Source of the DNA: Catajapyx aquilonaris
Lineage: Eukaryota
Direction: 5' to 3'
Assembly (NCBI GenBank): GCA_000934665.2
Contig: KZ538042.1
Location: 1 to 64,000 of the forward strand
DNA: 64,000 bases
Shown: positions 22,495 to 51,814 of the stretch, piece after piece
How the letters are laid out: each line of letters starts with the position of its first letter
Position numbering within the stretch: position 1 is the stretch's first letter
Notes under the pieces: generated by a model
Databases searched by the model: none
What the model was told of the DNA's origin: nothing
Seen by the model: the letters and a program-made list of their open reading frames with translations, nothing else
Position numbers and translations under genes: made by a program

Positions 22495-22535
22495 AAATGT
22501 ATTGTTTGGTGTAGTGAAATACACGTGTTCGTTGT

Positions 22536-22607
22536 TTCTAATATTATGTCTCTCTCTTGCAGGTAAGTGTTGTCGACTGTGCATGACGCTGCGCTGGGGT
22601 GGTGAGT
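22536..22607 (+). other. Putative recursive splice site (ratchet point) 1 with 39-nt cryptic exon
   Basis: TTCTAAT branch-like motif, TCTCTCTCTTGCAG|GTAAGT at 22562/22563, second donor GTG|GTGAGT at 22602. Confidence 0.65.
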
Positions 22608-24549
22608 ATAGTTGACTTCACTATCGCAGTGGAATTTTGACGATATAACTGCAATAATCTGCACGTGTGGTCGTGCAGATTCAACACCCTGTGCATCGAT
22701 CATCAATATTCATACTAGGTCACTGATACGACACGCCACACATCATCACTTACGGGCCTGACACGTGATAGCTTCTTTCGTGAAGGTATGAATACTGTTG
22801 AAATTGTCGAATTGTCCATGCCATTCACGCTAAAAAGGGGAAAAAATGGAGCCAGTTAATTCTTTTCCATACGGCTGCTCTTTCGTATTGGGAGACCCCG
22901 CACTTTTACGTAACGCCGCGCCGCCTGGAGGAGGGCGAATTCAAACATCAGCCCATGATGGTCGCTTACAGTGTTTTGCCATTGGATACTGTTTTCAGTG
23001 GCGACAATGGTAATCTCCTGAGCATGTATCTTCTGAAGGATCGGCGTGTATCCTTCGGGAAGGAAGGTTAGGTCATGGGGTAGGCTGGTGCAGCGTGCCC
23101 CTACCCCTGCCACATTCGGTCTCTAATTACGAACGCCCTTCCTTCCCTACACCTGGCTACCCTGCTTCCAAACCAGCGACGCGACGTCCCCCCCTGATAC
23201 ACTTGCGCAAGTGGTCCCGTGTGAACGCATCAAACTGGACCCGGTCTGGAACAGTGTGCCCCGGCCCACTTGGAAGGGGGTCGAATTTAATTTGACCCGT
23301 TCTGCGGCCGAGACTGTACTACGTTTGGGTCGATACGATAGGCGATCATCAGATAGAGCTGTCGCCGAAGCACGACGTTTACGATGTCAGAAAAGGTGTG
23401 CGGATCTTAATATACGACCCTGCCCCGAGTGGGTGGACATATTGACCTTTTGCAATGGGTCGAGGGAGGGGAGGGGAGGGGGGGGGCGTATATGGGTGCT
23501 GGTGAAAACATATACTGCGACAGTGTTATGTGTCGGGCACTTTATCAATGTTGACGGAAGCGGCGGCGGGCACAGGCGTTGTAAAACCTCTTTTCGCGTG
23601 TCTGACCAGGCGATCAGGCAACGCCGCTTTCATATTGACAATGAATGTACTTTCTTTGTTTTAATTGGGGCTGGGTGTGGGTGTGTGGTGGCCGATGGGT
23701 TGCGTAAAACCCCATCTTTTATTTACACGTGCTTGATGCTGCGTTTGGCCGCTTTATTGCCCTTAATAAGGAGCCGGTTCGCGCCTCGTCTTATTATAGC
23801 CATTTACAGTCTATAGCCGTGTGATCAGATAATAGACGCTCCAATAAAATATTGGAGGAAGGCCAGTGACGCCGCTATTAGATTGACGCTTTAATACGAG
23901 GGGCGACTAGTTTCGTGCAGTGAGGCAATGTCCCGAATTCAATCCCCGGTATGCGAATTTGTTTAAAAAAATAATGGGCATGCAGCAGGTACAAAACACC
24001 CGACCGCTGACCCCCTCGACCTCTCCCACAAATGAGGTACTATGCGAGTGACCACTCAATAGACTCTTCATCACATGGCCTCTTCATCTGCTCGCTCGGT
24101 GCACGTCATATTTTTTTTTCTATCCAACTTTAATATCAGTGGACTTGAAAAGGCGAAAAGGCACTCTGGGAAGTCAACTGATGGGATTAGAGCTCGGTGC
24201 AAAAATTCGCACATTTTTTGGGGCCAAATTGCGCCGAGAGTGCTCGCGTCCGGTTGAATATGTTTTTTCGAAAAAGAAAGAGATAAAAAAAACCCATCCG
24301 TGGACAAGGACATGAGAGGCTTAAAGTTTCAGGCATCGTCGGGATGATGACCTCTTCACCCTCAGTCGCACATTATTACAGCTGACGGATAACGATCTTT
24401 CCATAATCCACTTGTGCCGGGCATCATCGGACGCCAGTTTTCCTAATTGATCGGATTCCAGCTATGCCGCTTAGGCCTGCCCTTTCAATTAGTATCGCCC
24501 ATCAATTGCATTCTGGTACATAATAATAATAATTAAATAATAACAACGA

Positions 24550-25330
24550 GATAGAAAAACTATCGCATTTTTCTGGGACTGGGGCCTGCGGTGGTGGAGG
24601 CCATATTGTTAATCGCTTTGGCCTTCAAACAGCCCGGTTATCCGAACACTTCCTCTGATGTTCCAAGAACGAACTGTTTACTGACTGTCAACAACCCGAC
24701 AGTGGTGTCAACTAGGGGGCTAGGGGGTAGGGAGATAGCGAAGTAGACCCTCCAGCCGTCGGTGATCGAATGGATGGTTCCTCCTCCCACCCACCAGAGG
24801 CGCTGTCTACACCCCATTGCGTATGCGCGGAACGGGGGCCATTCTGAAGCGTCGCTGTAACAACATGCGGCGGACAAATCAGAAGGGATGATATACACGG
24901 TCATTACGATTTTAATATTATACAGTACAAGGAAAATCCTCGCTACGCTCGAATTTTTCTAGGCCTGCGGGCTGCGGTGGTTCAGATTGTTCAGATCATT
25001 TCCATAGAAACTTGAAACGTGAGAAGTTCCCAGAAGTGCATTCTATGATTAGCAACAAGGAAAATCCTCGCTACGCTCGAATTTTTCTAGGCCTGCGGGT
25101 TGCGGTGGTGGAAGTCATTGTTAATCATTGAATGCACTTTTGGGAACTACTCACGTTTCAAGTTCTCTATGGAAATGATCTGAACAATATAAGTAAGTTC
25201 CAACTAAAGGACACAGTTTACTCGTATTGCTGAGTGTGTGCTGGCCAATCGGGAGTGTCGCGGTAACAATATGGGGGCGGACCAATCAGAATGCCTATAC
25301 AAACAACGAAGGATTTTAATATTATAGATA
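24550..25330 (-). mobile_element. Cluster of Helitron family G copies and repeated 3' ends
   Basis: 24550-24925 aligns with 51434-51719. The 3'-end module GGAAAATCCTCGCTACGCTCGAATTTTTCTAGGCCTGCGG is repeated at ~24930 and ~25059; a 5'-end fragment lies at ~25240-25330. Confidence 0.75.
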
Positions 25331-26709
25331 GATAACTACTGTTGCCAGAGAGAGTAAAAGGTCGCGTTGATTGCAGCAGAGAACCAATCTCTCCGGCTGC
25401 TGCGTGCCGCCATCTGTCCAGCGAAATGGTGGGGGTGGAGGCAGGATTGTGACACGCGTGACAAAGGGAGAGGGGGGTGGTGTAATCCGGACCCCCCTGG
25501 CTTCCTATTGTTTTTTTTTTCTCCTTCTCCGTTGCTTCTCTCTTAAGGATCAAGCATCAGCGTGAAAGATCCCGATCGAGAAGCGAACTGAAAGAGCCGA
25601 CGTTGGATGGAAGGATTGGAAGGGGGGGGGGGGGGGNGGGGGGGGGGGGGAGAGCGACGCTGCCAAATGTCAATCCGACAGAAGGAGGGAGGGACACGCG
25701 GCCATCTTTTCTGGAGTAAAGCGTCCCCCCCCCCTCCCCAAAAGCCTGCTCAATAATTGCTTTGAACGCGGAGCTTGTGCTTTATCTTTCTGGGGGCCTC
25801 TCCTTTCCATTAGGCCGAATTAGAGGATGGGGAAGTTGGAGTGGAAATCTTGCCTCCTTCCCCCTCCTCCTTCCCCCTCCTCCCCACCCCTTATCCACTC
25901 ATCCAAAAAAGAAACGGAGGCGCTCAGGGATAGGGAGGGAAAAGGGGGGGCAAGAGTTGTTTCCATGCTGCTCAGTTTAATTTGGGGGAATAAACGAGGC
26001 TGAAAAATGGCGGCATGGAACGTACGCTCCGGAGACACTTTCTTTTACACGACCAGTCTCAATCGCCTTTAAAAAAAATATTTGGCGATATTTTTCGTGC
26101 AATAAAAATCGGACGAGCATATTTCCTAATTATTAATTCGGTCCGTCGTCCCTCGTTATCGGTCGTCTATACGCCTTATACCTGGCCCATGTCCGGATCA
26201 ATGCGGAATTTCCGCTCTTTCACACGCACTCTACATGTGTTTAAACCGCTCGTCAAAATTCAGGTCAGCGTGATTGGGTAAAACATTCCCTCCCCCCCAT
26301 CCCCACCCTGCTTAAAATTTCAAATATCACGTTTTAACTCGCCCGATGGAACTCGTTCCGCAGACTCAATTTGTATGTGTGTCTCTCTCTGTGCGACCCA
26401 GCCGCGCGCGCACGCACGCAAAATTCGCATCCCGAATTTTTGTGGGGGCGGAGGGGAAGCGATGTATAGTCCACTAATTATTATGCCCGCTAAATGCCGG
26501 GCGTGCTATCATTTCATTTGGTACACCCTTTTTAGAGAGAGAGAGAGATAGAGACCGGAATTTTACACGCTCCTTCTGCTGCCTGTCAATATTTACGCCG
26601 CGTTTAAAAAGGGGGGGCCTGGTTGCACCACGATTCGCATGTCAAATACGGTTGGTTTACTCCTTACTCGCTTGTTGGGAGAATTTCAACAACCTGCTCC
26701 AGCCACATC

Positions 26710-27425
26710 TTTCCAGCCTTTAACTGACCGTTAAGAGTTAATTTCTAAGGGTAAGGTTGAAGAAACAGGACATGAATCTGAAAGATTAACTGTTGGTATT
26801 AATAACGATAGGATATGATAAACCCTGGTTAGAAAGTTCACAATTGATTACTCCAACCTCTTAACTGACCGTAAAGAGTTAATTTTCAAGGGTAAGGTTG
26901 GAAGAACAGGGTATGATTACGAGAAATTAACTGTTGGTATTAATAACGATAAGATATGATAAACTCTGGTTAGAAAGTTCACAATTGATTGCTGCAACCT
27001 CTTAACTTACCGTTAATAGTTAATTTTCAAGGGTGAGGGTGGAAGAACAGGACATTAATCTGAGAGATAAACTGTTGGTATTAATAACGATAGGATATGA
27101 TAAACCGTGGTTAGAAAGTTCACAATTTTAGCTGACAGTTAATAGTTAATTTTCAAAGGTAACGCTGGAGGAACAGGGCATGAATCCGACAGATTAACTG
27201 TTGGTGTTAACAACGATAAGGTACGATAAACCATAGTTATAAAGTTCACAATTACTTACTCCAACCTTTTAACTGACCGTTAAGAGTTAATTTCTATAAG
27301 GGTAAGGTTGAAGAAACAGGACATGAATCTGAGAGATTAACTGTTGGTATTAATAACGATAAGATATGATAAACTCTGGTTAGAAAGTTGACAATTGATT
27401 ACTCCCAACTTTTAACTAACCATCA
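26710..27425. repeat. 141-bp tandem satellite, about 5 copies
   Basis: TTAACTGACCGTTAAGAGTTAATTT... units start at ~26720, 26861, 27002, 27128, 27269 and 27411; one unit has a ~15-bp deletion. Confidence 0.95.
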
Positions 27426-27758
27426 GCAGTTTAAGCATACTTAAACTGCAGTTAGCTCTGTAGTCCTGTACGGTACAATAATTCGTCACTGTTAGCTCTT
27501 AATGGTCCGTAACAATGTTGGAATTAATGAAAGAGTTTAATTCTCACCGAATGTCAGTGGTGCGTTGTAACAATTAGGATCGGGTGCACCACATCGGGGT
27601 AAAATGATCCACCGAGGAAATCAGCCGGTTTTTAGACTGAAATTTGGCCATGAATAATTTAGCTGCCTGTGGCCTTAGCAGCAAGGATAAACTCGTGGTA
27701 TACATCAGGTGTCATGTTGTATTCCAACTCCTGAGGGGCGGTTGTACCATTGCCTGTA

Positions 27759-27957
27759 CAGTATTGGTCATATATCGAGGCAACTGCCAGCGACATTTTC
27801 CGAAGCGGAAGAAGCAGGAATCGAATATAAGGATACTGCAAGCCGGGCGAGTATGATTCTGTGACCTGAGCGGCTAGGAATAATATGGTCACAATTCCTT
27901 CTTTTGCCGCTTCGGAAAATGTCGTTGGCAGTATGCCTCGATTTATGTCCAACACTG
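27759..27957. mobile_element. Tc1/mariner-type MITE, family I, copy 2
   Basis: TA|CAGT...CACTG|TA; same arms as 1616-1777 with a longer loop. Confidence 0.85.
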
Positions 27958-29447
27958 TACTCTACAACTGTCTTTATTATTCGTTATCAATCTTACAAGT
28001 ATCATCGAAAACATAAGCCGCAGAGATGTAAAAATTGGCGTTAATCGGACCAGTTTTTTCCCCATCATTTTCACTGCGTAATCTTCTGATGTGGCTTTAA
28101 ACTCCCGTTAAAAATGTTGGAAAAAAACCGTACACTTATTTAGTCACACGACAGTCATACCCAATAGGATCGAATGAGGTTGGTAACAGTGCCATTAATC
28201 CGGTGTGCACATTTGCGTAAACCCCCCGATTCTTATCCAGAAAAAAAATCCCACATAAATTACAAACCCTAATCAAAATGGGTAGTTAGCCCCCCCCCCC
28301 CACACACACACACGGAAATGACTCATTATGGTCACGTGATCGACCAGTGTGCCTTCTACAAAGTAGCAGCTATCACCAACAGTTAATGTGACTGATAGTT
28401 CTTGAAACTATTGCAACACTTTTGATTCAGAACGTATGGTTAAGCCAAAAAAATTCTAAGCGGAAAATGTTAAAGCCCTTTGATGACGTAAAGGGACGCC
28501 TAGGGGTTACCAGATGCACTGCACAGTATATCCATTTCACCTGGCAACCCTGCAGGAACTGGCAAGTGCTGGTGTCAAAAGGAGCGAACTTTCCCAAAGT
28601 TGGATGAATATATCTAATTTAAAGAGGGGCTGCCTGTTTCGAAATGGGTGGGCCAGAGTGTCCCCTGTACTTTTTTGGGGGGGAGCGTCCGGTGTTGCGG
28701 GTTTTCCCCGTGGTGGTGGAATTCGTCCAGGGCGGGGGGAGCAGCAGACCCTGTGAGTCTGTGGCCGGGGTTTGATTATTTTGTTATCGGGAAGGGCTTA
28801 GGTGCGGTTGTGTTTTCCAGGGGAAAAAGGCAAAGTCCCTGCTTTGTCTCCCTAATGATTATGAGTTTGGGTTTTTGGGGAGGAGGGGAGGAATTGGATT
28901 TTGTGTGTGCCGTCAGAAGCCCCCGGACTATTCTACCTAGGGATTAAACTCCCCAAAATTTTCCCCCCACATCGCCCCCCCTCCCGGTGATTAACGGACC
29001 GTGTTAATGCATTAGCCCGGACCTTATTTGGACTGCCACAGTTTGGGAAGAGGGGGTGGGAGGTGGGGAAACAGCAAGAGGGTTAGTGATCTGCAGGTTT
29101 TCTGCACGACTTTGTGTTTGGACAGTTGGGTCGAGTTTTAGGAAACCCCCCCATCTTCAAGAGGGAGAGGGCTTTTGAGGGGGGGTTCCCAAGCACGTTT
29201 TCTTATTTCCAACACTTAAGAGAAAAGGAGGAAGGATTTGCATATGAAAGAGCTAGTTTTGCCTGCCTCCAGGAATATTGATTATGCAATTACTTATTTT
29301 GATAAAGTGGCTGTGTCCAAGTGGAAATAACGTGGACCTGATTTTCTTCTTCGTTCAAAGTCTGTTTCACCCACCATTTCCTGCTGGAAATACGTCGGTT
29401 TCGGTACCACTCTCAGCGAGAAATATATCGAACGACGTGATATCACA

Positions 29448-30054
29448 CACACTCGAAAAATTTCGAGCGTTTTTCCCACTCATTTTGATCGAAATGATCA
29501 CTAATTTTGAGTTAAATCACTCGATCACTAGAGTGAAAATTTCCCACTCAAAATGAGCCATCATTTCTCTCAAATTGAGTGGAAAATCGCTCGATCACTA
29601 GAGTGACAATTTCCCACTCAAAATGAGTCATCATTTCTCTCAAATTGAGTGGAAAATCACTCGATCACTAGTGACAATTTCCCATTCAAAACGAGTCATC
29701 ATTTCTCTCAAATTGAGTGGAAAATCACTCGATCACTAGTGACAATTTCCCATTCAAAACGAGTCATCATTTCTCTCAAATTGGGTGGAAAATCACTCCA
29801 TTCGAGTGAAATGATGGGTAATTTTGAGTCAGTTTAACTCCAAATGAGTGGGGAAACGCTCGAAATTTTGAGTGAAATATGTCTTACTTGCTGTAAAAGC
29901 GTCTCCCGCACCTACTTTCACTCTTCTTTCGAGTACGGTCCACTCGATATGAGTGAAAGTAGATCATTGCGTAGTGAAATTTACTCAAAAAGAGCATTTT
30001 GCAAAATTTCTCATTTTTCGAGTGAATTTTCCACTCGAGTGTTTTTAGAGAGTA
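29448..30054. mobile_element. CACTC-rich element, family K, with internal ~59-bp tandem repeats (CACTA/EnSpm-like MITE)
   Basis: ACACTCGAAAAA ... TTTTTAGAGAGT termini; about 4 tandem units of CACTCGATCACTAG..ACAATTTCCCA..CAAAA.GAGTCATCATTTCTCTCAAATTGAGTGGAAAAT. Confidence 0.7.
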
Positions 30055-30791
30055 TAGAATTGGCTAGGAGTGACTCTGTCCCTACATGCTGTGACTCGTC
30101 ACATAGGTGCATGTAGTTACCACTATAGTTAACGCGTGGCGTGGGAGGAGCCTATGCGCCAACTGGTAGTGGCCTATTGTACTACGTCTAAGTGCAGTGT
30201 TGCCAAATTTTAGATGAGCTCTTGGTGAGGTCAAGACGGCGGGTATGACCGAGTATAACTTTAGAACCACAAGCTCCATGTACTTGATCCAATATGGGCG
30301 GAAGTTAGCGATTCATTCCTGAATTTCGTAAAGTTGAGGCCACATTTCGGGCGAGCGAATTTCGCCAAAAGCCTGGGTGCCCCTGACGTGTTTGCAATTT
30401 GATTCTCGGCGGTGGATCAAATAAGTGATGAGGTCAAAGTTGCATCCGGGGGAGGTCGCCCCTATTTATAAGTCCTGGGCCGCATGGTAAATGAGTCATG
30501 AGTCTTGGTGTGCAAAAGCGCGGAGGTCATTTTTTGGGTTGAAATGTTGTGTTGTTCACTTTCCCCTCGTTTTCATCCAAACCCCGGGCATGCAAAATTC
30601 ACCTCCGGCGGGGCCACACCGCCATTTAATTCAATTTTCATCTAACTCTCCCCACCACCACTGCCATCCCGGGGCCACCCATCGGCCTCGTTCAATTATA
30701 AATAAAATATATAGGTCTATACATACAGACTGGCGCCACTTGTCAGCCATGCATTTTTGAGTCACGTTAGGTTGAAACTGTATAACACGCT

Positions 30792-31630
30792 TTTTTTAAG
30801 ACATTTTCTCATCGAGAAAAAGAAGCCATACAACTGTCCGTCCGTCTGTGGACAGGTATCAGGGCCTAAACTGCAAGAGATAGCCTACCGACAAACTGAT
30901 TTCGGATTCGGATTCAGCGGACCCCTAAAGAGGTTGATGGTCAACTTCCGGTGTGGTTATCCGGGTTCACCCTATCCGCCAAGGTCAAACAGTATTATTG
31001 AGAAGTTACTTTCCATTGACTCCTTCGCAACGAGAAATGAGATCGACAACATTGTATGTTGTTGTTATCCAGTTGGAATCGCATCGTGTATCGTATCGTA
31101 GTCAACAAAGTGTCAGTCTCATTTCCCGCTGCCAAATGAGAAAAAAGTATACTCGAATGGGTGTCCTTATTGGAGGCCGGAAATGAGACTACCACAATCT
31201 ATGTCGTTGTCTAATTCGAATTTCCTCGACAATGAGAAAAATGTATACTCGAATCATGCTCGTGTGATTTTTGCCAATCTTATTCGAATATCATGGACAA
31301 TGAGAAAAAATCTACTGGAATCGTGCTCGTGTGTTGCCAACTATCTTATTCGAATTTCCTGGACAACGAGAAAAAGTGTACTCGAATCATGCTCGTGTGA
31401 TTTTTTTTTCCCCCCAATCTATTTCGAATTTCCTCGACAATGAGAACAAAGTCTACTCGAATAGTGCTCCTGTGATTTTGCCAATCTTATTCGAATTTCC
31501 TGGACAATGAGAAAAAGTATACTCGAGTCATGCTTGTGTGATTTTTTTTTGCCATTATTATTCGAATTTCTTGGACAAGGAGAGAAAAGTCTACTCGAAT
31601 TAGGCTCGTGTGATTTTTGCCATTCTTATT
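30792..31630 (+). mobile_element. DINE-1/HINE-like family D, copy 3, with tandemly amplified 3' module
   Basis: Family D core at ~30835-31140, followed by about 7 copies of a ~60-70-bp unit ACAATGAGAAAAAGT.TACTCGAATCATGCTCGTGTGATTTTTGCCAATCTTATTCGAATTTCC. Confidence 0.8.
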
Positions 31631-32918
31631 TGGGTTTTTATTTTAGTACTACAATATCTAGATTCCTTCAGGATGTTGCACCTGGAATATGTTCCGGAGC
31701 ATCTTGGGTTCTTGCATGTTGGCCGGATTATCCGTGCGTTTCCCATCCTATAGAGATTCTCTCGAGTTTCACCACGATTTCTGCTGAAGTTGACTGCACC
31801 CTCTCCCAGATTTTCTGAGCAATTTCATCCTGATGTTGGCTGCATGTAGTGCGTGTTGCTGTCCCTCTTTTTTTTCTCTGTCCCTCCCCCTTCCACCCGC
31901 CCATCAAGCCCTCCCCTCCGTCGGCCCGGATTATCAGGAGCGGAGTTGGGAGGCCCGGAACATTAATAAAGAAGGCTGATGAAACAATTTGAAACCGCGT
32001 CGGTCCCGCTTTTGTAACCTAATAATGTCCTTGCCGGCGGTTAACACAGACTTGGGGCCTCGTTTCCTCACCAATTTGGGTAATTGAGGGCTGGGGGGGG
32101 TGGAGGGTAGGGGGATGGGAGATAACATTTTGTACATTTTGAGACCCCCGCTACTATACTAACAGAATGTATGTCAGGTTTTTTCCTCCCTGTGTTCTTT
32201 GAGGGGGGTGCATCTGCCAACCCTAGCTGGTTCCTTCCCACCATTTGCCAAATTCGCTTGGGCATCAACCCAGAATAACTGCCTGGGGGTTTTTTTTTTG
32301 TCATCGTTTTGTTGTTGTTGTCGTCTACGTATAGGTCAGTTATCTGGCGCGAGGATGCTGCTCTTGGGATTGCGCAAGGGCGTTACCCTGCTCGACTCTT
32401 TTTTTCACTGCGAGTGGCTCCAGGCTCTCGTAGTAATGTGCGAATGGGGCCCAGGACTCGTTATTGCAGATACGTTGGAATGTTTTTCGAGGTCGTGGAT
32501 GACGCCAGAGTGTTTTACTGGGGATGGAGACTGATGTGGGAAACGGTCCTGTCACATTTGGGGGGCCCAATTGGCTCCAAATCGTATATACTTCGCTTTC
32601 TGTTCAAAGCCACCCCACTTCATCGTACCACTATAGACGAGTTTTTTTTTTTAAATGAGCGCAACCGAGTGCGCCACACAGTTCGCGCAAATTGTTTCCA
32701 ACACTGCCCTTGAGTGGATAACAATATGACCGACTTTTGCTACGTTGCCAAGGCTCTTGAACGAACCGTATAGTACTACTTTCCCTCTAAGCAAGTGTGC
32801 AGAGAGACAGCCCATGCGCCAACTGGTAGTGGCCTATTGTACTACGTCCACGTGAGCGGGCTGGGGGGAGGGGGGAGCAAACAGTGTTGCCAACATTTGG
32901 CAACGAGTTCGCTACTAG

Positions 32919-33286
32919 CAGGGAGCATATTGCATATACTACATAAGAGGCGCAAACATTCGATTTCCGCGTCACTCTGTTTGGGGCATTGCCAGGGCTG
33001 GGGGCCACTTTAAAGTGTGGGCAACGCCAACGAGGTGTAAATAGGGTACGGGCAAAAATAGGGTCCGCCATCTTGGATTCGCGCGTGTTCTTGCCGTGTA
33101 GTTGCCATGGCCGCCAAAACCATCAAAGATGGCGGACCCTATTTTTGCCTGTACCCTATTTATACCTCGTTGGCGTTGCCCCCGTTTCAAAATGGCCGCC
33201 AGCCTTGGCAACGGCCCCAAACAGAGAGACGCGAACATCAAAGGCGCCGACAGAAGTTTGCGCCTCTTAGTATAATATGCTCCCTG
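32919..33286. mobile_element. Foldback MITE, family A, copy 2
   Basis: CAGGGAGCATAT...ATATGCTCCCTG; flanks CTACTAG / CTACTGG; abuts family E and C fragments. Confidence 0.9.
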
Positions 33287-34149
33287 CTACTGGTATGATA
33301 AGAATGACAAGAAGCTAGTCAAGATTTGAGCCTTCCGAGCTTATCGCCTCGAGTTGTCCGGAGTGGGTGGCATTCAGATAGTAGCTATAGGCGAAGTGTG
33401 GTGTACATACGGGTTGACTCGAATAGGGCATGTGCTACTATCCTGGTGGCAGGATGACCAAAAGAGATTGCGATTCGAGACAGTGCAAACTGCCAGCCCA
33501 GATTGGCATCTTGACTCCCAGTATACCGCACAGCGACATCTGTTGTTGGCGTCGTCGTACTAAACGGAGGGGCCAGCTGGGTTGCATTTTATCTCTCTGT
33601 CTCCCTTTTTCTTCTATCTCAACGACCTGTGAAAAGAGCGTAGGGAAAGGAGGTTGTTATCTCCTTACTTATAGTTGGCCGGGGCTTATTTAAAACCAAC
33701 TCGAGCGAGCTCTCAACAATCTGTGAACGTGTTCCAATCCGGTCGGAGGAGAGTGGGAGAGAAGAGGGGGGGTTTTCTTTACAGAGAAGACCGACCTTCT
33801 TTGTGCTTCCTTCCAGCTCCTCCTTTAGAAACTGGAGGCTCGCACGGCACGCAGTATTTGCTACAGTTGAAGTATCAAATCCTGTGATTCCTCGGAATGG
33901 GGAGGTTGGGGAGAGGAGAGTGGCTAACACTGTATACGTTGCTGTGGGAAGTCGGTAAGCACCTTCAGGTGGGTTCAACAAACTTAGCCGAATTATTGCA
34001 GGCGCCTACATGCAAGGGATGGTGCACTGTACATTGGTTTTACAGGGTGGTTTACTGGAGCAAGTGCATCTCTTTGATTCCCATGATGCTACAGGCCATA
34101 GGTTTGCACAGGGTAATATGGACGTGTAATTTAGTTTTGTATCAGGGCC

Positions 34150-34468
34150 CATTCTAGAACGACTGTGTCCGTCCGTCCGTCCGTAGACAGGTATCAGCGC
34201 CCAAACCGCAAGAGATAGCAACCAACGGTTTTCGGATTCAGATTAAGTGGACCCTAATGGTCAACTTCTGGTTTTCTAGATTCACTCTATCCGCCAGGGT
34301 CAAAGAGCATGATTTAGAAATTATTGGTGTCCTCGGGTTCCTTGACAACGGGAAATGAGTCTGACATCATTGTCATCGTTGTCATATTTGTTCGTCAGCC
34401 TCATTTCCCTCTTCCCAATGAGAAAATGTCTACTCGAATCCCGCTCGTGTGATATGCCAATCTTGTTT
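34150..34468 (+). mobile_element. DINE-1/HINE-like family D, copy 4
   Basis: (GTCC)n, core AAACCGCAAGAGATAGC, 3' GTCTACTCGAATC...GCCAATCTTGTT. Confidence 0.75.
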
Positions 34469-35154
34469 ATTTGCTCGATTTGAATGCATGGTTGGCCATA
34501 TATAAGACTGTATGACTTGGTATGGCGTCATTGGGACTGTAAAGTCGTCTTGATTGATGGGCACTGCAGACACGACCATGGGCAATGTTTCCACCATTTG
34601 TTTTTTTTGTGCCCGCCCGTCACTGCACTCACTCCGCCTAAGTATGACTGAAGGATGACCCTTTGACCTGGGTTCATTCACTTCTGGGAGTTTGAAAAAT
34701 GCCTGGCAATCTGACGAAGACAGGTCGTCTACGATGATTTATGCGCCAACAATTTGTGTGCGAGGTGTATATAGTGCAGTCGAAGGACGGGGCCTGGCTC
34801 GCTTTTTTCTCTCTCTCTGTCTATGTGTGTGTGTGTGTGTGAAGGAAGTGTTTGACAGCCGGGCCAAAATTTTGGGCGGAAATGAGGATTTAGTGCCGAC
34901 ATAAGTCATCGTTAACCGGGATGCTAACCGCAAATGGACGGCCCCCCGAAACATCAAACACGAATTTTGCATTACCACCAACCCGTCCAGGAATTTTCAA
35001 TCTTTCTCTCTCTCCAACCATTTGCACTGTCCCGGATTTTATATTTCATATTACACAGGGCGGTACACCACCCAAGTTCCACGCTTCAAATTTGAAACAA
35101 ACTTCACTTTCAGATTTAAAAACAATAATTTAATATCGCTTTGGACCAACCTGT

Positions 35155-39458: not shown

Positions 39459-39469
39459 CATACTACTGA

Positions 39470-39949
39470 CAGGGAGCATATACTACAAGAGGCGCGAACT
39501 TCTGTCGGCGACTTTGATGTCCGCGTCTCTCTGTTTGGGGCCGTTGCCAAGGCTAGCGGCCATTTTGAAACGGGGGCAACGCCAACGAGGTATAAATAGG
39601 GTACAGGCAGGCCGTAAAGGTCCGCCATCCTGGATGGTTTTGGCGTTCACGGCAAGAACACTCGCGAATTTGAATATTTTTGCCGTATGAGCTCCTTACA
39701 CTTTTCTACTTATTAATTCCGTAGGTACGACAAATATATTCAAATTCGCGCGTGTTCTTGCCTTGAAGTGCCATGGCCGCCAAAACCATCAAAGATGGCG
39801 GACCTTTACGGCCTGCCTGTACCCTCTTTATACCTCGTTGGCGTTGCCCCCGTTTCAAAATGGCCGCCAGCCTTGGCAACACCCCAAACAGAGAGACGCG
39901 TGAATCGAATGTTTGCGCCTCTTATGTAGTATACAGTATATGCTCCCTG
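39470..39949. mobile_element. Foldback MITE, family A, copy 3 (long variant, opposite orientation)
   Basis: CAGGGAGCATAT...ATATGCTCCCTG; flanks CTACTGA / CTACTGT; extra central AT-rich spacer at ~39665-39750. Confidence 0.9.
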
Positions 39950-42216: not shown

Positions 42217-42780
42217 TTTGACTCATCGCCTATACAGGTACCATAGTTTTCACTTTCCCCTTTCAACAATTTAGATGTCATATCGCGGTCAGAGAGGGTG
42301 TGACCCACTTCAATGGAGGCGACGCACTCGCTGGGTATAGCACCCTGGTGGGCTTTGTCCGCGCGGTGACTCATCACCAACGTGCATGTAGTACTTCTTT
42401 CCCTCCCTAAGCAGTAGATGCGCAATCTGGTAGGGGCCTATTGCACTATTGTCAAATGCAAATAGGAACGATTGCGCAACCCGGAGTGCGCTGAATACAG
42501 TCCGGGAAATCGAAGGGGTTTTAAATGAAACACCCCCTCTTGTGACCCTTATTTCCAACGCTGGCTGGGGGAAATGGCTGGGAATGGGCCGGCGTTGGAA
42601 ATAAGGATCACAAGAGGGAGTGTTTCATTAAAAACCCCTTCGATTTCCCGGACTGTATCCAGCGCACTCTGGGTTGCGCAGTCGGTCTTATTTGCATTCG
42701 ACAATACTTCCAAATCCGGAGGGGGGGGGGGGAGCAGTGTTGCCAAAATTTGGCAAACTAGTCCGCTACTAGTATCACTA
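42217..42780. mobile_element. Family E copy interrupted by a foldback MITE
   Basis: TTGACTCATCGCCTATA..GGTACCATAGTTT...CACCCTGGTGGGCTTTGTCCGCGCGGTGACTCATCACCAACGTGCATG, resuming after 42706. Confidence 0.7.
42449..42704. mobile_element. Near-perfect 256-bp foldback MITE with TA target duplication
   Basis: TA|TTGTC...GACAA|TA with ~120-bp inverted arms. Other family E copies read GGCCTATTGTACTACGTC at the empty site. Confidence 0.85.
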
Positions 42781-43299
42781 TAAACATCTGCTGTCAGCTA
42801 ATTAAAAAAAAAAAAGCTAGCTTCCAAAATAGTTATTCGGAGCCTTGCATCCAGAACTTATCGAGAGAAAAAAATTAGCCGCCCAATCCATCCGTGTATG
42901 CAGGGGGTACAATGGGAGCGATCAGAAGTGAGGAATTTTTCGCACCGATGGGGTTCAAAACTCTCATCTCCGCAGCATCCCGTGATGGACCGAAAAAAAA
43001 GGAGTGGTGGGTGGGTGGGGGTGGAATAAATGTTGAAAAACGCGACCGGTCTGCGGCTCAAGTTGGGCGTATTATCCAATCAGCAGCGTTGGCTTGGAAC
43101 TATCCAGGGGGGGGATTGGAATATTGAAAAAAAAGAAAAAATCGTGGGGGTCCCATCATTTTCCAACCCTCCCCCCCCCCCTTTCGCCTTGAATCCTGGA
43201 TGATCGCAAACAAAAGGCGGCGTTTTAGTTCACATCCTCTCTCCCAGAATATTATTGCGGATCCACTGGATCGTATCCACAAAATACCTTTGAACTTTT

Positions 43300-43302
<3 letters not shown>

Positions 43303-43359
<57 letters not shown>
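43303..43359. repeat. (CT)n microsatellite
   Basis: Pure dinucleotide run. Confidence 0.95.
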
Positions 43360-43361
<2 letters not shown>

Positions 43362-44008
43362 CACCTCCCCCTGTGTCATTGGTCCCATTGTCTTGAGTGT
43401 GTGGGCTGACTGATAATGGGGCAAAATTGCTACTGAATAGTGGGGGGATTATTGGGAAGGGCTATGGCTACAATGGAGCGTCACTGGAAAGGTGTTGGGC
43501 TGCTAAGCTGATTGGAGGAACTTAACCGTGAATATAATGGCTATTGGACACGGTGTAGAGCCAGTGAGAGGGGGGGGGGGGGGAAGCCACCCCCCATTTC
43601 AACACCCGGCTCGACCGAGAGTGAATATCTAATAATGAAGTTATTTCGGCAGAAAATATTGCGCAGATACGGGGCTTTGCAGCTGCTGCATTGTTGCCCA
43701 GGATTACCCTGCAACCGGGGTGGGATTCACACGGGCCAAAAAAAAAGCGAGGTTAAGGTTGCGACGAAAAATTTACGCCCTTGCTGCAACGCTTTTTATA
43801 GAAACCACAACTGCAGGGTGGTCTAAAAAAAGCCTAATATTAGCAGCTAATGTTATGATAACATATGAAAGGAGCTGCTTAAAAATATGTGCCAATGAAG
43901 TATTTACGCCTTTCGTTCCTCAGGATTTTGACAAATATATTGCAGTCTCCACGTCTCACATAAGTAACAAAACCATACTTTTTACGCCCTTGCCCACACA
44001 TCCACGCC

Positions 44009-44381
44009 GTTCGGGCTTGCCCCATGTTCGGACTTACCCTGTGTTCGGACTTGCCCTGTGTTTAGACTTGCCCTGTGTTCGGAATTACCCCGTATTTGGA
44101 CTTGACCTGTGTTTGGACTTGTCTTGTGTTCGGAATTGCCCTGTTTTTGGACTTGCCCTGTGTTCGGACGTGTCCAATGTTCGGAATTACCCCGTTTTTG
44201 GACTTGCCATGTGTTTAGACTTGCCCTGTGTTCGGAAGTGTCCTATGTTCGGAATTACCCTGTGTTTGGACTTGTCCTGTGTTCGGGATTACCCCGTTTT
44301 TGGACTTGCCCTGTGTTTAGACTTGCCCTGTGTTCTGACGTGTCCCATGTTCGGAATTACCCTGTGTTTGGACTTGCCCTA
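44009..44381. repeat. ~17-18-bp minisatellite (GTGTTCGGACTTGCCCT-like)
   Basis: About 21 degenerate units; it generates the repetitive tail of ORF 43720-44397. Confidence 0.9.
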
Positions 44382-44858
44382 CTTTACCTTTAAATGAAGA
44401 TACTTTGGCGGAAAACACTGCGAGGCATTGCAGAGCTGGTGCATCGCACCCTGTACCAAAAAATAGAAGAGTAAGCCCCCCCTGGCTGGTGGAATGAGTT
44501 GTGTGAGATAATAACTGATTGCGGCAACGTTGCCCAAGGCTGTGTAATGTCGGGTTCCTTATCGGAGGTTGGCTTGTGCCCAAACCTATCCAATGATAGT
44601 TAATAATTTACCGCGTTAAGTACCTCGACGATGTAATTGATTTATTTTTTCAAACTGGGGAGCCAGTGGGAACGGAACGCTTGCAGCTCGGATAAGGTCG
44701 TCTTTTATGCATGCTGACTGGGAAGGGGGTAGAGTCGCACACTTCCGCCTTTTTCCCTGCATAAAAAGCCTGCTCTTTCTTATTGCCAAACCCTCTCTCA
44801 GGGGGACACGCTGCATGGTCCTTTCGCTGTGATTTTGCAGCCAAACATATATACAATA

Positions 44859-45158
44859 CTAGCAGGGGACCCGTTCTTCGCACGGAGATCGATAAATCCG
44901 GATAAATCTAAATGAAAGAAGTTTGTAAAAGCTTGTCAAATTCTCGCAGATGAATACCAAACGTCGTAAAAAACAAAAACCAAAAATCCCTAAAGTTTGG
45001 GTATTTAGACTCAAAAAAGTGCGGATTTCGGCCTTTTCCCGGAATCAGCGGCATGTAAGATGTGTGTGTGTGTGCGTGCCAAGTTTCAGCACTCCGGATG
45101 GGAGTTAAACATCCGTGACATACACATGGACAAACATTCTGCTTTATATAATGTAAGA
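44859..45158 (-). mobile_element. Non-autonomous Helitron, family F, copy 2
   Basis: Minus strand A|TCTTACATTATATAAAGCAG ... CCGTGCGAAGAACGGGTCCCCTGCTAG|T. Confidence 0.85.
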
Positions 45159-47634
45159 TGATGCCCGAGTGTCACCAGCTGTAGCCCTATCAATTCAGGA
45201 GTAAATCTCTTGTAAACACTTATACCTAACTGTAGTTTCCGTTTTGATTTTTGATAATTTCAACTCTCGGGACATGACAGATGAGGTCATCATACACTTC
45301 AGGGTCGCTGAACTCGTGAAAGGCATGGGGTATTTGCACCGAGTAGAGCCCCGTACTATTAATATCCGACTGGATTAAGCCGTTTACTCTCAGGGTGAAA
45401 AGTTTAATTAATATTTTGAAATGCTGGATATATGGTTGGAAGTTTTGTGTGCGCAATGGACCACCCTGCATCCGCTGTGTGTTTTTACTGCGGCCCCATT
45501 TGGAGTGGAAGGGGTTACGGTATGCCCCCCTTCTCCGCCTCCACACCTGGCACCCCCTGGATGCACGCCAGGCGCACGCACTCACCAGCACACATTCATA
45601 CACATAAAGGACTCGTAGGTTTGTGTCAGCGAGTGGCCCCGAAGGAAGGATATGGAGCCCCCATTTATTTTACGACCTCTGGAGATACTCTTTTTTACGA
45701 CCCTCAACAAACGGCTGCCACCAACTTTATTTTCATTTTTATACACTTCCCCCATACCCCCCTCTCGCACATGCATGAGGGTGTATGCCTGCTGGCTCTA
45801 GAGTTATGCTTCCCTCGGGGCCTGAAGCAGCGCCTGCAAGCGGCCAGCCAGAGCAAACCCTCCAAGGACAGCAGGAGGTGCCATGACTTATGTAGAGTTT
45901 TGCCGTGACACCAACCCATGTACTGCCCCTGAAGGGTGCTACCAAGACGGGGAGGGAATGACTTATGGGCCCTCGGGTGGGGCAGGTTTTGGCCCAGGGG
46001 TAAACACACGAGTTGCTCCTAGAAACTCACCCATCTCAATACATTGTTGATTGTTCCTCAGGTTGCGTAACTCGGCCTTTGCCATGACCCGAATGCAACA
46101 TCGATTTCCAGATCGAAACCACACATCGACAAACATGCAATTTTCATTAAAACCACTTACGGCCATTTGCATATCTTTCTCCTAATAGGTTGATTCTCTC
46201 CGTCTGATATTTGCCCGACGCAACGACTCGAGGGTCGCAGTAGTGTGAAGAGGGAGTATGCGCCATCTGTGCGTGAAGAATACTACCACATGGTAAATCG
46301 GCGGGCTGTCTCATTAAAGCCGTTTGATTGTCAATATCATATACTGCGTCTAGGTTTTGCCAATGGGTTTGTTAGTTATTTAAGAAATACATTGCACCCT
46401 TTGTGAAACTTGGACTTGGACAATGTACCACCCTGTGTGAAGCAAGCGACGTTGTTTGCAGCAAAGTATTCGGTGTCTGAGAGGCGTTTGCAAAGGTGGT
46501 GGAAAAGGTTGGGAATATTATTCCGGGCCCTTTCATCATTTGATATTACAGGGGAGCGTTAGCGGTGGATTTATAAGCCCCTTGGAAAATCCGGGCACAT
46601 AAACACACAGCAGCAGCCACGCACCGCTCTCTACTACTACTACTGTACCTCTCTCACCCCTAGAGAGGGGGAGAGAAGGCTTTAATCCAATTCCGACGTC
46701 AAATAAGGGAAAACACCGGTATGGATGTAAATGGGGGGAGGCTCTTCTTTGCGAAAACATCATGCAAGTTTAATCTGAAAGATTTGCGGTCAGACCGAAT
46801 TAGCGAGCCGCCCTTTGACCCTTTCCCTCCCAGCAGCTTGGCTAGGAACTAATTCGTCATTATTTTCTTCCCCTTTCCCTCGCTCCGTAAACACAATCCA
46901 GCCAGCTCTTTCCGATTGTTTTGCCGGATGGTGCGGGTTGGAGAAAGAAAGGAACTTTGGAAAATCCGGAAAAGAAAAATATCTTTGGAAGATAAAGTTC
47001 GGTGGCCTGGAAGCAAGCCCTATATAATTAACAATCGGTAGCCAAGCCATCCTCGTAAATGAAATGTTATCCGTCAAAAGTGACAAAATGTGCGAGTTTC
47101 GTGCAAAATAACCACTGATATTCCGAAGTAACGGCGAGCAGTTTATATCCAGTTGTTTTTCCATCATCGTATACCCGCTACTGAGAAAGAAACATGTAAA
47201 TTCCTGCGAGGTCTACACTGTGCAGTGCGGAAATTGTGACAATTTGAGCAAAGAGAAGTAGCAGGAAATTCCATGCAGTGATCCGGTTATGTCGCGATGT
47301 AACCCCCCGCCATTGCGCCCAGGAAATAGCAGGAATTTCCCAACTAGTAACGTCAAAATGTCACGGGAATGCCAGGAAGGTCCTAGAAGTACAAATCGAA
47401 CTAACTCTCGTAAGTATCCGGAAATGCCCCGGAATCCCACCTTGTCTTTGGAGGGGGGGCCCACTATCACTAATTTCATTCCATCCCATCGCCCACCTAC
47501 GTACAAACAAACGCCATGAAATTCCAATCAGCTCCATGAAATTCAAACCTATTCCCCACATTGAATTCTATAAATTTGTCCAGGAAATGACTGAGCGATG
47601 TCTCCTGAAAATATGAAACAATGCCCAGTGAGAA

Positions 47635-47953
47635 AAGGCCTCGAAATGACAATAATTATGTTCCCCTAATCTAGCCTAGCAGGTTAGGATAGCTTAGGAT
47701 AGCCTAGGATATATCCTAACCTATCCTAACCCTGCCTAGGGTTAACCTGTTTGGGTTAGGATAGGTTAGGATATAGCCTAACCTATCCTAACCTATCCTA
47801 ACCTATCCTAACCCCTAGAATAACTAGATTAGGGTTAGGATAGGATATATCTTAACCTATCCTAACCTATCCTAACCCTAACCTGATGTATCATAACGAG
47901 CCCTGAATGGACTGCCATTTGTCATTTTATTTGCAACTTATTGTGGAGGCCTT
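47635..47953. repeat. TTAGG/ATAGG repeat block in alternating orientations, probably inside a MITE
   Basis: GGTTAGGATA and TATCCTAACC tracts switch orientation several times (47668-47885); flanking AAGGCCTC..AAATGACAA / TTGTCATTT..GAGGCCTT inverted motifs. Confidence 0.7.
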
Positions 47954-49554
47954 GGGGGTCCACCTGTGACGTTTTTTAAAGAGCCATTTTAGGTGGGTAA
48001 AAGTGGCCAGTCCTGGCCACTAGAAGAGGAGGAAATGCTTATAAAGTTCTTTTTGAGGTGGGTCAGACGTCGCCCGGAGCCCACCGAAAAAACTTGATTC
48101 TCAGTTGGCTGAAGGCAACTATGAGAGCAAAAGGGAAGGAGACAGGGTTGCCAGATACAGCAGGGTTTGAAAAAGGTGCAGCGAGGTGCAATCGATGTTG
48201 TTTGTCCGTCGGTCCCTCCCTGCCCATATAAGGCTCAACCCTTTTCCCATTTCCATGAAATGGATTTGGAAAACCCAGGGTGAGGGGAGGGGGATAAATC
48301 GCCTGCATCAAGAGGGGGGGGAGGGGACTTGCAACTATTTGATCTGCGGTTTGTGTTTTTTTTAGGGTGCCAAAAATAGGAAAAGTGGGATCGGGGGTTT
48401 TTGTTGCAGGAGAGGGTTTTTTTTGCGGTTTTTCATTCCCCCCCCTGTAGATAGGCAGTGTCATTTTCTCGCTGGAGCGATTGCGGTTATTGATTGCCCG
48501 CGTTTTAAATCGCGGTTTTGGAATTTTGGGAGGGGGCTCAGGCCTCCGAAATGGGACCCCGTTTGTTTTACTGGAGGAGACAGCAGAGTGTTGGTATGTA
48601 AGGTATACGGAAGAGGAGGGGGGTGAAGTTGATGAAAATTTGGAGGGATCTTCACAACATATCAGATTTCCAATCTGCCTCGATCAACAGGGTGTTCAGA
48701 AAATTGGAGCATAATTTCTGCGTATAAAAATAACGAAAGTTGTTGCTTCTTTCAGTGGTAAATTCACGACTTCCTTCTTTGGACTGTGGGGCTTGGTCCA
48801 CACTTCATACTCTAGTAATTTTATTGGGAATTTATGATTCGGTTTCCGAGCTGCTGCCTGGGGTTATCAGGCAGATAATTATTATTAGAGCGGCCAGCTG
48901 CAGCACCCTGTATTTTCATTCATGTCCTGCAGGCCTTTCTTTGGCCCCGGGTTTTGGCAAGAACCTCCTCCTCCTCCTCCTCCTCCCTTTCTTGTTCTCC
49001 CCAGTGAATCGATGGCGTTCAAAATTAGCAGTATATTGCGCAGTAATTGCAGTACTTACTTCGGGACAAGTAATGCGCTCTTGAATATGCATGGGGCGGT
49101 ACATACATCCGCAGCGGTACGGCACTAAATCACATTAAGCGTGATCTAAGAGGGTAGTGTATTACTGGAGCGTATTAGTTGGATGAGGTGGTTGGTGCAG
49201 CACTGGCACCATATTATAGTCTCCATTGGCTCCAGGGGAGACTCCTCTCTCAAATTGCATTTGCGGATAAAAATATTCGCAAATGTTTTTCCAGGATCCG
49301 CAAACTTTGGCGGCCTGCAGGAGGACGGAATTAGTTGGCTTAGCGGCTGATTATATTACTTGAAACATGGACTGGTCATATCCGATGGAGACTGACAGCG
49401 CTCACCTATCAAAGGAGCATTGAAGAAGCTGCGAGCCTTCTTTTGCCTTTGCCAGAAAAACGCGCCCACTTGTCCATTTGGCCAAAAAGTGGCATCAAAA
49501 GGTTCTTCCTCTGATTCTGACGCCGGAATTTAATTCGATATTTCTTCCCCCTTT

Positions 49555-49590
49555 TTCCTTCCTTCCTTCCTTCCTTCCTTCCTTCCTTCC
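49555..49590. repeat. (TTCC)n microsatellite
   Basis: Tetranucleotide run. Confidence 0.9.
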
Positions 49591-49939
49591 CTTTTTGCTC
49601 CCATGATTTTCGGGAAGGATCCAACCCCCACTGGTGTTTTTGATTGGCAGGGCATCATCTTAAGCAGGGCTGGTTCCACTTACACGCCCAAAAAGTCCTC
49701 AGATGTCATCCTGTCATCCGCTTCTGGGGCGGGGAGATGACGATGGGGAATTTCTGCATCACCCTTTTTTGGTGCTCACAAGTCAACGATGACGCAAAGT
49801 TCAAATACTGATGGTTCATGTTTCAGCTGCCATGGTCATTAGTCGTGTTCGAATGAGAAATGTTACCTTTAAATCAACTGGTGACGTCTGTAGGTCACGA
49901 GCCAACTGATGACGTCAATGTTATGTTTAAAGCAACTAT

Positions 49940-50110
49940 CAATATACTATCAAAATACTCCGTTGTTTGTAATTTAAGCATTCTGATTGGTCCGCCGCAC
50001 ATTGTTGTTACCGCGTCGGTTCCGATTGGCCCACGTCCTGCGCATGCGCAATGGGGGTTGAAGCAGCGCCTCTGGCGGGCGGGCGAAGGAACTACAGGCA
50101 GGCCACGCTA
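49940..50110 (+). mobile_element. Helitron family G fragment
   Basis: TTCTGATTGGTCCGCCG..ATTGTTG..CCGCG..TTCCGATTGGCCC..GCGCATGCGCAATGGGG..CAGCGCCTCTGG is the reverse complement of ~51580-51680. Confidence 0.65.
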
Positions 50111-51433
50111 ACTTCCCATTGACGTCGTAGTTTTTGTTTACAAATTCCTAGTGTTACGTTTAAATCAACTAGTGACGTCTATGGGACGTTTGATGGCGTC
50201 GTAATTCACCTATGTTTGAACCCAATGAGACGTGGTCGCTCGGCCACGTCTAAATCCTGGACTGCGGGATCGCTTTTTTATTATAATTCGGCTGAACTGT
50301 AGTGCAAACCAGCGATCCGACCGCCAATACAATGCTTCGTGCGTTACCTGCACATTTACAGTTCATCCCTGCGGCCGTAATTTCCCTGCCAACACGTGAA
50401 ATATCCCTCAGGATCTGGTTTCCGGATTTCCCTATACCTTCCCGTTTTAAAGCCATTCCGGGAGCGAGGTGGGGAATAAAAAAGGCTGGGAAAAATATAT
50501 ATAAAAAATAAACTAAATGCGGAGTATATCGGCAGAACGGTTAAAGCCCGCGCCGCTTTTTTATGTGTGCAAAATACGGATCGCTTATTTCGGGTTGGGG
50601 GAGGATTACCCGGAGCCTAGACTGGAATATCGATATTCTTGGATTGGATTGGATGCAATACGGGTTCTTCTAACCGGGAATCTTTTGACGCCGATAGTAC
50701 CGCACAGCGCTATTTTTGTAAGTAAAGAAGTTGTTGAAAAAGTGAAGCGCAACATTTTTAAAATTTTTATTTTTATACTCTACTTACAATTTAATATTTC
50801 CGCGCTAAACAGAGTCTTTGAACACGTGTAATTACGTCGGGAGTTAAATCATGCAGGAGCGACAGGTTGTCCGGATCTTTTTGTCCGACGTTGTTCCCCT
50901 CTGCAACCGGAGATTTTTAAAAAAATGAGTGTGTCATCGAGTTCATTACCGAGTTATTACGTGTCCATTACAGTAGTGCATTGCATTGTTTATGTGTCGT
51001 GCAAACAGCCCTTGAGCCTGTTGCACGGGGAAGTAAACAAGAGGCCTTGGCCAACTAATTAGAGGGAACAATAACTGTCGGTACAGGAGGCGCCTATTAA
51101 ACTCGCAGGGGTTACGTTTCAAAAATTTCCCGATTGTTTTGTGCCACGTTTGTTCGGAAAAATAGTGGGGGAGGCAGGGGGCGGCTTTTAATTTTAGTTA
51201 CACCCCAATCCCATGCCTCCCCATGAGACTGATTGAATTGGCGTCCATACCGCCGCATGATTGCGTCGCCACAAGTGCTCGTTGATTGGCGCCAAGCATC
51301 GAGTCATACTCTGTGTACAAGCTGCACATTCAACACCTCCAGTGGGCTTTGATCCACATTTTTGTTTGGAGCCAACACCCGCAGCTGCTAATATTAGCTC
51401 ATATCTGTCGGAAGATGTACATAGTTATACGTA

Positions 51434-51719
51434 CTAGAAAAACCCTCGCTTCGCTCGCATTTTTCTAGGCCTGCAGCGTACGGTGGTGGAGGCCATGAAT
51501 CGCTTTGGCCGTCGAACACGTCCTGATGTGCCAATACGAAACTGTTTACTTCCTGTCAACAACTTGACAGTTGTGCCCAACCACCAGAGGCGCTGCCGCC
51601 ACCCCACTGCGCATGCGTAGAACGCGGGCCAATAGGAAGCGTCGCGGCAACAATACGCGGCGGACTAATCAGAACGCTTATATACAAACATGCCCACTAC
51701 GATTTTAATATATATATGA
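51434..51719 (-). mobile_element. Non-autonomous Helitron, family G, full copy
   Basis: Minus strand A|TCATATATATATTAAAATCG ... CGAGCGAAGCGAGGGTTTTTCTAG|T, with a 3' stem and no TSD. Confidence 0.8.
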
Positions 51720-51746
51720 TATAATAAGATTCGTGTACTGCATTGT

Positions 51747-51814
51747 TACTAACATACTTTTCTCTACTTGCAGGTGAGTGTTGGCTGCGTTGACACACGC
51801 TGCTAGTGGTGAGT
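51747..51814 (+). other. Putative recursive splice site (ratchet point) 2 with 35-nt cryptic exon
   Basis: Perfect TACTAAC branch point (51747-51753), CTTTTCTCTACTTGCAG|GTGAGT at 51773/51774, second donor GTG|GTGAGT at 51809. Confidence 0.7.

Follow-up and report, generated by a model that had tools for sequence, protein, structure and literature searches.

Two candidate insect-type ratchet points, each with a putative cryptic RS-exon, lie 29.2 kb apart on one strand of a repeat-rich 64-kb window

We analysed positions 1 to 64,000 of contig KZ538042.1 (assembly GCA_000934665.2); this whole stretch of 64,000 nucleotides (nt), read on the forward strand, is called the window below. On its + strand we found two matching modules in which a splice acceptor directly abuts a strong donor and is followed, after 35 to 39 nt, by a second donor. 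The sequence evidence makes it fairly probable that both are intronic ratchet points of the insect type, each with a cryptic recursive-splicing exon (RS-exon), in a single very long intron of a + strand gene whose exons lie outside the window. A preliminary description of this DNA had proposed RS-exon-mediated recursive splicing. That reading was favoured by the sequence tests reported here, namely the rarity of the modules, their restriction to one strand, the TT at positions -5/-6, the branch point, the short non-coding exons and an identity of 23 nt between the second site and a recursive site of the Drosophila melanogaster gene sbb, whereas the novelty claimed for it was too strong.

Results

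Architecture of the two modules

Site 1 read ttCTAAT..tctctctcTTGCAG/GTAAGTgttg (in full, ttCTAATattatgtctctctcTTGCAG/GTAAGTgttg; a slash marks the splice junction, from which minus and plus positions are counted) and its AG ended at 22562. Site 2 read taCTAAC..ttttctctacTTGCAG/GTGAGTgttg (in full, taCTAACatacttttctctacTTGCAG/GTGAGTgttg) with its AG ending at 51773. Both were on the + strand with a spacing of 29,211 nt, in agreement with the 29.2 kb given in the preliminary description, and the order of elements given there (branch point, pyrimidine tract, TTGCAG/GTRAGTGTTG and a second GTGAGT donor after 35-39 nt, R being a purine) proved exact at each of the two sites.

The acceptor and the donor were juxtaposed with a strong GTRAGT in both modules (CAG/GTAAGT at 22562/22563 and CAG/GTGAGT at 51773/51774). 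The acceptor read cTTgcag at both, which places TT at -5/-6, and 14 of the 20 positions from -23 to -4 were pyrimidines in each case, with a CTAAT or a CTAAC branch motif upstream. The putative RS-exon 1, of 39 nt, was frame-preserving and had one open frame. The stops found in two of the three frames of this segment and in all three frames of the other (Table 1) fit with cryptic exons that are barred from the mRNA.

Rarity and strand bias

The string AGGTRAGT occurred four times on the + strand of the window (9994, 22562, 51773 and 53439) and was absent from the - strand, when about two per strand are expected from the length. The occurrences at 9994 and 53439 were preceded by weak tracts and had a purine at -3. 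A strict filter, consisting of a pyrimidine at -3 plus at least 14 pyrimidines among the 20 positions from -23 to -4, left sites 1 and 2 on the + strand and none on the - strand, which bore out the earlier statement that no comparable AG/GTRAGT with a strong tract is present elsewhere on either strand.

The null expectation was obtained from 2000 dinucleotide-preserving shuffles of a strand. These contained a mean of 0.054 sites per strand that passed the strict filter, with two or more in 4 of the 2000 shuffles. When an additional GTRAGT at +20 to +100 was included, the mean was 0.0025, with one or more in 5 of 2000 and two or more in 0 of 2000. Since natural pyrimidine runs are destroyed by shuffling, a count was also made on the real sequence, in which 135 acceptor-like YAG (Y being a pyrimidine) on the + strand and 176 on the - strand, together with 24 GTRAGT per strand of 64,000 nt, led to an expectation of 0.05-0.07 fused sites per strand.

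Two features of the modules were outside the shuffle counts, the TT at -5/-6 and the CTAAY at -21. Among the AGGT of the window, TT at -5/-6 was present at 14 of 202 on the + strand and 9 of 175 on the - strand (23/377 in total, about 6%). A CTAAY with its branch A at -21 was found at 2 of the 311 acceptor-like sites of both strands, and these were exactly sites 1 and 2; a CTAAY located anywhere from -45 to -13 was found at 20 of the 311.

A relaxed scan with published fly criteria (TT at -5/-6, YAG, at least 12/20 pyrimidines and a donor of at least 5/6) yielded four sites on the + strand and none on the - strand, the two additional candidates being weaker (Table 1). Comparison with the opposite strand, which the preliminary description had proposed, set two sites against none with the strict filter and four against none with the relaxed scan.

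Comparison with the listed recursive sites of Drosophila

Both sites showed all the sequence features published as criteria for Drosophila ratchet points. In the preprint of Duff et al. (10.1101/006163), 196 of 197 fly ratchet points, against 43.8% of all introns, have TT at -5/-6. The 539 fly sites in the S1 Table of Pai et al. (2018; PMC6110457) were compared with ours by counts of short motifs. In this table TTGCAGGT is the commonest TTNCAGGT form, with 128 rows (TTT 61, TTA 42 and TTC 23), and TTGCAGGTGAGT and TTGCAGGTAAGT are present in 27 and 12 rows, respectively. TTGCAG/GT, the commonest fly form, was present at both window sites. Neither window site is itself listed, AGGTAAGTGTTG and AGGTGAGTGTTG each being found in 0 rows among the 539 D. 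melanogaster sites.

Site 2 and the first recursive site of sbb

The string TACTTGCAGGTGAGTG was found in one row of the same S1 Table (PMC6110457), that of recursive site 2R:14216011 of FBgn0010575, located within the 65.6-kilobase (kb) intron 2R:14177355-14243004(-). A table in PMC2628282 gives FBgn0010575 as sbb (scribbler). The motif of the fly site is TTCTTTGCATTTTCTCTACTTGCAG/GTGAGTGCCAAT, and its identity with site 2 over 23 nt (-16 to +7) takes in the tract-interrupting A at -8. The flanks within the 37-nt motif were unrelated, with matches at 1 of 9 positions upstream and 0 of 5 downstream of the 23-nt core. Ratchet points are described in PMC8605326 as having an ultraconserved core between free flanks, a pattern that the match of site 2 to sbb may follow.

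Junction reads and saw-tooth coverage support 2R:14216011 in flies, where it is the first of three sbb recursive sites that divide the intron into segments of 26,993, 14,609, 7,762 and 16,285 nt (PMC6110457). In the sbb intron, 27.0 kb separate the 5' splice site from this first recursive site; in the window, another module lies 29.2 kb upstream of site 2. Judged from the sequence, site 2 may be the orthologue of the first sbb recursive site, and the window would then belong to the sbb gene of a different species, probably a dipteran, a proposition that we consider almost, if not quite, evenly balanced.

No counterpart of site 1 was found in the S1 Table, with CTTGCAGGTAAGTG in 0 rows, and site 1 may be lineage-specific or merely unlisted. 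Its assignment to the second or third sbb recursive site was rejected: by eye it had a loose resemblance to the second sbb site only, and the order was wrong. The supplements of PMC8605326 contained no sbb entry, and a metagenome scan with the 23-nt core gave 0 matches. A degenerate 24-mer covering both sites matched one place only, positions 1260-1283 of metagenome contig L001 (ttctccttcTTGCAG/GTAAGTgttg). This contig was rejected (36% G+C, no blastn similarity to the window), and as about one chance match is expected for such a 24-mer, we took it as chance.

Likeness of the two modules to each other

A blastn comparison within the window produced a gapless alignment of 22532-22572 with 51743-51783 (34/42 matches, E = 0.004), extending from the branch point to +10. 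With a word size of 7, blastn of the 1-kb regions round each site gave nothing in common beyond this 42-nt core and unrelated repeats, and there was no third copy of the module in the window. The features in common beyond the consensus were the 21-nt branch spacing, TTGTTNCTAAYAT round the branch point and GTTG at +7 to +10.

The heptamer ACGCTGC was also present at +24 to +30 of both putative RS-exons (22586-22592 and 51797-51803). The probability of a shared 7-mer was 0.0012 at the same offset and 0.011 when a shift of up to 4 nt either way was allowed, in a test that was picked post hoc. These resemblances would suggest either that the modules share ancestry or that the interior of the RS-exon is constrained.

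Surroundings of the modules

The window had 46.6% G+C and a CpG observed/expected ratio of 0.83, which is not vertebrate-like, and it was rich in tandem repeats and in repeats that resemble miniature inverted-repeat transposable elements (MITEs). The modules had been described as lying outside repeats, which is true but barely, the nearest repeats stopping short of the AGs by 52-66 nt. At 22268-22496 lay a MITE-like element (about 230 nt; inverted ends of 34 nt at 22272-22305 and 22462-22495), and blastn within the window detected a second copy, 75% identical, at 59893-60114. The first copy ended at 22496, 66 nt before the AG of site 1. Several partial copies of a further repeat family were found at 51425-51721, 24563-25330 and 49964-50084, the end at 51721 being 52 nt before the AG of site 2.

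The earlier finding of no coding exon in the window held for the 146 longest (at least 87 amino acids) of the 322 stop-to-stop open reading frames (ORFs) of at least 70 amino acids, in which no Pfam family scored above noise, although short exons could escape such a search. Only two sub-threshold Pfam matches were obtained, both in repeat-derived ORFs, and the translations of the nine longest ORFs were non-coding in appearance. Rfam gave 0 matches at gathering scores in the window. G exceeded C on the + strand in 23 of 32 bins of 2 kb, and the cumulative skew climbed almost steadily; read from composition, this could mark either + strand transcription or the orientation of repeats and would be weak support at most.

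A repeat of about 300 nt was present in four copies (13555-13862, 32925-33250, 39535-39918 and 57063-57401), with blocks in its two halves that are nearly reverse-complementary (families D4, D6, D7 and D8), and probably represents a further MITE family. A 17-nt unit was repeated in tandem about 22 times from 43958 to 44433, with higher-order periodicity at 51 and 102 nt. The open frame of 252 amino acids at 43639-44397 is made by this array and is not a gene. An array of (GGTTAGGATA)n had 10.5 copies (54852-54956), and some 7 kb upstream a related block contained the unit in both orientations (47682-47895). Further satellites were located at 26712-27421, 29514-29798, 31210-31630 and 62317-62860, with periods of about 141, 68, 66/141 and 30 nt, respectively. 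The assembly was uncertain at a long G run (25622-25650) with a single N at 25637 and at a gap of 24 N (61899-61922).

Table 1. Coordinates in the window of the elements of the two modules and of the weaker candidates
Feature	Position	Strand	Remarks
Site 1 branch-point motif CTAAT	22538..22542	+	branch A 22541, 21 nt before AG
Site 1 pyrimidine tract and acceptor ...tctctctcTTGCAG	22543..22562	+	TT at -5/-6
Site 1 candidate ratchet-point donor GTAAGT	22563..22568	+	abuts AG
Putative cryptic RS-exon 1, 39 nt	22563..22601	+	stops in 2/3 frames
RS-exon 1 downstream donor gtg/GTGAGT	22602..22607	+	read from sequence
Site 2 branch-point motif CTAAC	51749..51753	+	branch A 51752, 21 nt before AG
Site 2 pyrimidine tract and acceptor ...ttttctctacTTGCAG	51754..51773	+	TT at -5/-6
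Site 2 candidate ratchet-point donor GTGAGT	51774..51779	+	abuts AG
Putative cryptic RS-exon 2, 35 nt	51774..51808	+	frame-shifting; stops in 3/3 frames
RS-exon 2 downstream donor gtg/GTGAGT	51809..51814	+	read from sequence
23-nt core (-16..+7) identical to D. melanogaster sbb site 2R:14216011	51758..51780	+	S1 Table match
Weaker extra candidate TTTTAG/GTGGGT	47968..48002	+	AG end 47992; donor-like GAG/GTGGGT at +65; weak tract; relaxed scan
Weaker extra candidate TTTTAG/GTAAGA	63744..63778	+	AG end 63768; no donor of at least 5/6 within 100 nt; relaxed scan

Discussion

Proposed course of splicing

In the scheme set out by Joseph and Lai (2021; PMC8605326), a ratchet point is the 5' end of a cryptic RS-exon, generally out of frame, the donor of which loses to the regenerated ratchet-point donor. 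PMC6110457 likewise reports an enrichment of strong donors downstream of recursive sites and an acceptor half that is stronger than ordinary acceptors. Modelled on the Drosophila scheme of these two papers, U2AF and U2 would recognise the strong acceptor of each window site (branch A at -21, TT at -5/-6, CAG), the GTGAGT donor 35-39 nt downstream aiding this recognition by exon definition. The joining of an upstream exon to 22563 would recreate a 5' splice site (exon/GTAAGT), which would beat the weaker gtg/GTGAGT, and the 39-nt segment would be lost with the next lariat. This lariat would end at 51773, or first at the weaker site near 47992, and the cycle would be repeated at 51774, giving an mRNA without any nucleotide from either site. 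We infer the transcription of the window, the order of the steps and the outcome of the donor competition from this scheme.

Alternatives and points of weakness

Recruitment of the two segments into mRNA would make them micro-exons that are expressed and regulated and that have recursive features, as poison cassette exons or as exons of the 5' untranslated region, sometimes kept through their gtg/GTGAGT donors in the manner of the expressed RS-exons mI and mII of Ubx. Such exons would account for the complete acceptor and the GTGAGT donor found on both segments and for the 39-nt segment being frame-preserving with one open frame, and ACGCTGC at a common offset could be an exonic regulatory element. 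The 35-nt segment is nevertheless frame-shifting and is interrupted by stops in each of its three frames, and the 39-nt segment has stops in two. The exonic GTG of both downstream donors fits the usual exon end poorly, which also counts against micro-exons. Expressed RS-exons do exist in flies, with an outcome set by donor competition and exonic sequence, but they number fewer than 50, compared with more than 500 intronic ratchet points (PMC8605326), and we regard this explanation as unlikely for the window.

Rather less probable is that a single sequence with a splice-like core was duplicated, as a segmental copy or as a repeat family that went unrecognised, and left the two sites as relics, so that their likeness would come from ancestry and not from selection for recursive splicing. 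The gapless 42-nt alignment (34 matches, E = 0.004), the branch-point spacing and the ACGCTGC at +24 to +30 in common, and the abundance of short repeats in the window are all consistent with such an origin, but the similarity stops at the edges of the functional elements, the window holds no third copy, and a neutral relic is not expected to retain all splice elements in both copies. Duplication and function are, moreover, compatible. Chance, by which functionless motifs would have arisen in non-transcribed or antisense DNA, is the least probable of the explanations and in our opinion very improbable. AGGTRAGT itself is present at about the expected rate of two per strand, the thresholds were set once the sites were known, and rare events are bound to appear somewhere in an overall scan of very many windows; on the other side stand the 0 of 2000 strand-shuffles with two full modules, the presence at both sites of features that were not counted in the shuffles (TT at about 6% of AGGT, CTAAY at -21 at 2 of 311 acceptor-like sites) and the 23-nt identity of site 2 to a verified fly site.

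Several results weigh against the interpretation of the modules as ratchet points or of site 2 as an sbb site. The choice of thresholds after the sites were known applies to every count given above. A second donor in the +20 to +100 range has a 3% chance per site, and pairs of an acceptor-like site and a GTRAGT within 400 nt numbered 22 on the + strand and 37 on the - strand (4 and 5, respectively, at 20-60 nt); as short acceptor-donor pairs are no rarer on the - strand, the downstream donor is not distinctive by itself. The tracts are good without being extreme, with 14/20 pyrimidines when many fly sites have longer T runs. The AT skew gave no support, T exceeding A in 19 of 32 bins, which was not significant. 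Among the 539 fly rows, TACTTGCAGGT was present in 8 and CTACTTGCAGGT in 3; a Ten-m site has 16 nt in common with site 2, and a site in FBgn0052264, by eye, 16 nt in common with site 1. These matches to unrelated fly sites put 16 nt at chance level, with the sbb match 7 nt longer. The sbb match, too, could be chance; we roughly estimate the probability of a chance match of 23 nt at 2e-3 to 5e-3. Finally, the likeness of the modules beyond the consensus means that they are maybe not independent, which weakens the statistic for two sites; if they do share ancestry, it shrinks to the value for a single site, still about 0.0025 per strand.

We retain the interpretation of the modules as insect-type ratchet points with cryptic RS-exons as the probable one. 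A more elaborate history, which we think rather unlikely, would have the window as the long sbb intron of a species distant from D. melanogaster and perhaps not a drosophilid. The first ratchet point would have kept 23 nt unchanged as its surroundings diverged, and the second module, 29 kb upstream, would have been copied from the first as the intron grew by MITE insertions. If this were true, ratchet points could arise by duplication within an intron, with an RS-exon element that is so far undescribed.

The finding chiefly confirms that the signature of recursive splicing can be recognised in raw sequence. Two well-formed examples of recursive splicing of the RS-exon type in a genome other than that of D. 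melanogaster would be gained if the sites are used. If the sbb match reflects orthology, it would provide a dated case of the depth to which the core of a ratchet point is conserved. The extra likeness of the modules gives a minor lead, open to test, on what RS-exons contain or on the origin of ratchet points.

Comparison with known systems

Ratchet points with cryptic RS-exons have reportedly been described in Drosophila by Hatton in 1998, Burnette in 2005, Duff in 2015 and Joseph in 2018, and the mechanism is well established there. The window sites resemble the Drosophila ones in their fused (Y)nNCAG/GTRAGT, the TT at -5/-6, the TTGCAG/GT and a branch point about 20 nt upstream, and also in the short non-coding cryptic exon closed by a second donor and in the kilobase spacing on one strand. 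They differ from them in the length of the putative RS-exons, 35-39 nt instead of the approximately 50 nt given for flies in PMC8605326, and in being known from sequence alone. They also differ from many fly sites in their shorter pyrimidine tracts and in the surrounding DNA, with its 46.6% G+C and abundant MITE-like repeats.

The statement in the preliminary description that recursive splicing is documented mainly in Drosophila and vertebrates was too strong, the signature having been published for other invertebrates since 2009. Shepard et al. (2009, PMC2773006) gave sense/antisense ratios of ratchet-point sites in introns of more than 50 kb of 21.7 for the fruit fly, much greater than 10 for the mosquito, 8.0 for the beetle, 4.0 for the bee and 8.2 for the sea urchin, with vertebrates near 1. 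In the locust, a recursive site of NPF1 was predicted and supported by immunoprecipitation of U2AF65 (PMC8892266), and recursive splicing has been examined in the lungfish by RNA sequencing (10.1101/2024.12.11.627982). Like the work in PMC2773006 and PMC8892266, ours is a prediction from sequence, and like the former it uses a sense-strand excess as an argument; both of these studies used annotated introns, whereas the intron in the window is itself deduced from the sequence. For the mosquito, our literature search gave citations only and no experimental report of recursive splicing.

Vertebrate RS-exons, said to have been described by Sibley in 2015 and Blazquez in 2018, resemble the window modules in that an acceptor is immediately followed by a reconstituted donor and in the exon definition that acts through a downstream donor. 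The vertebrate sites differ in being mostly annotated exons under the control of the exon junction complex, with only nine fully suppressed intronic sites noted in PMC8605326. The CpG observed/expected ratio of 0.83, together with a motif of the fly type, makes a vertebrate source unlikely.

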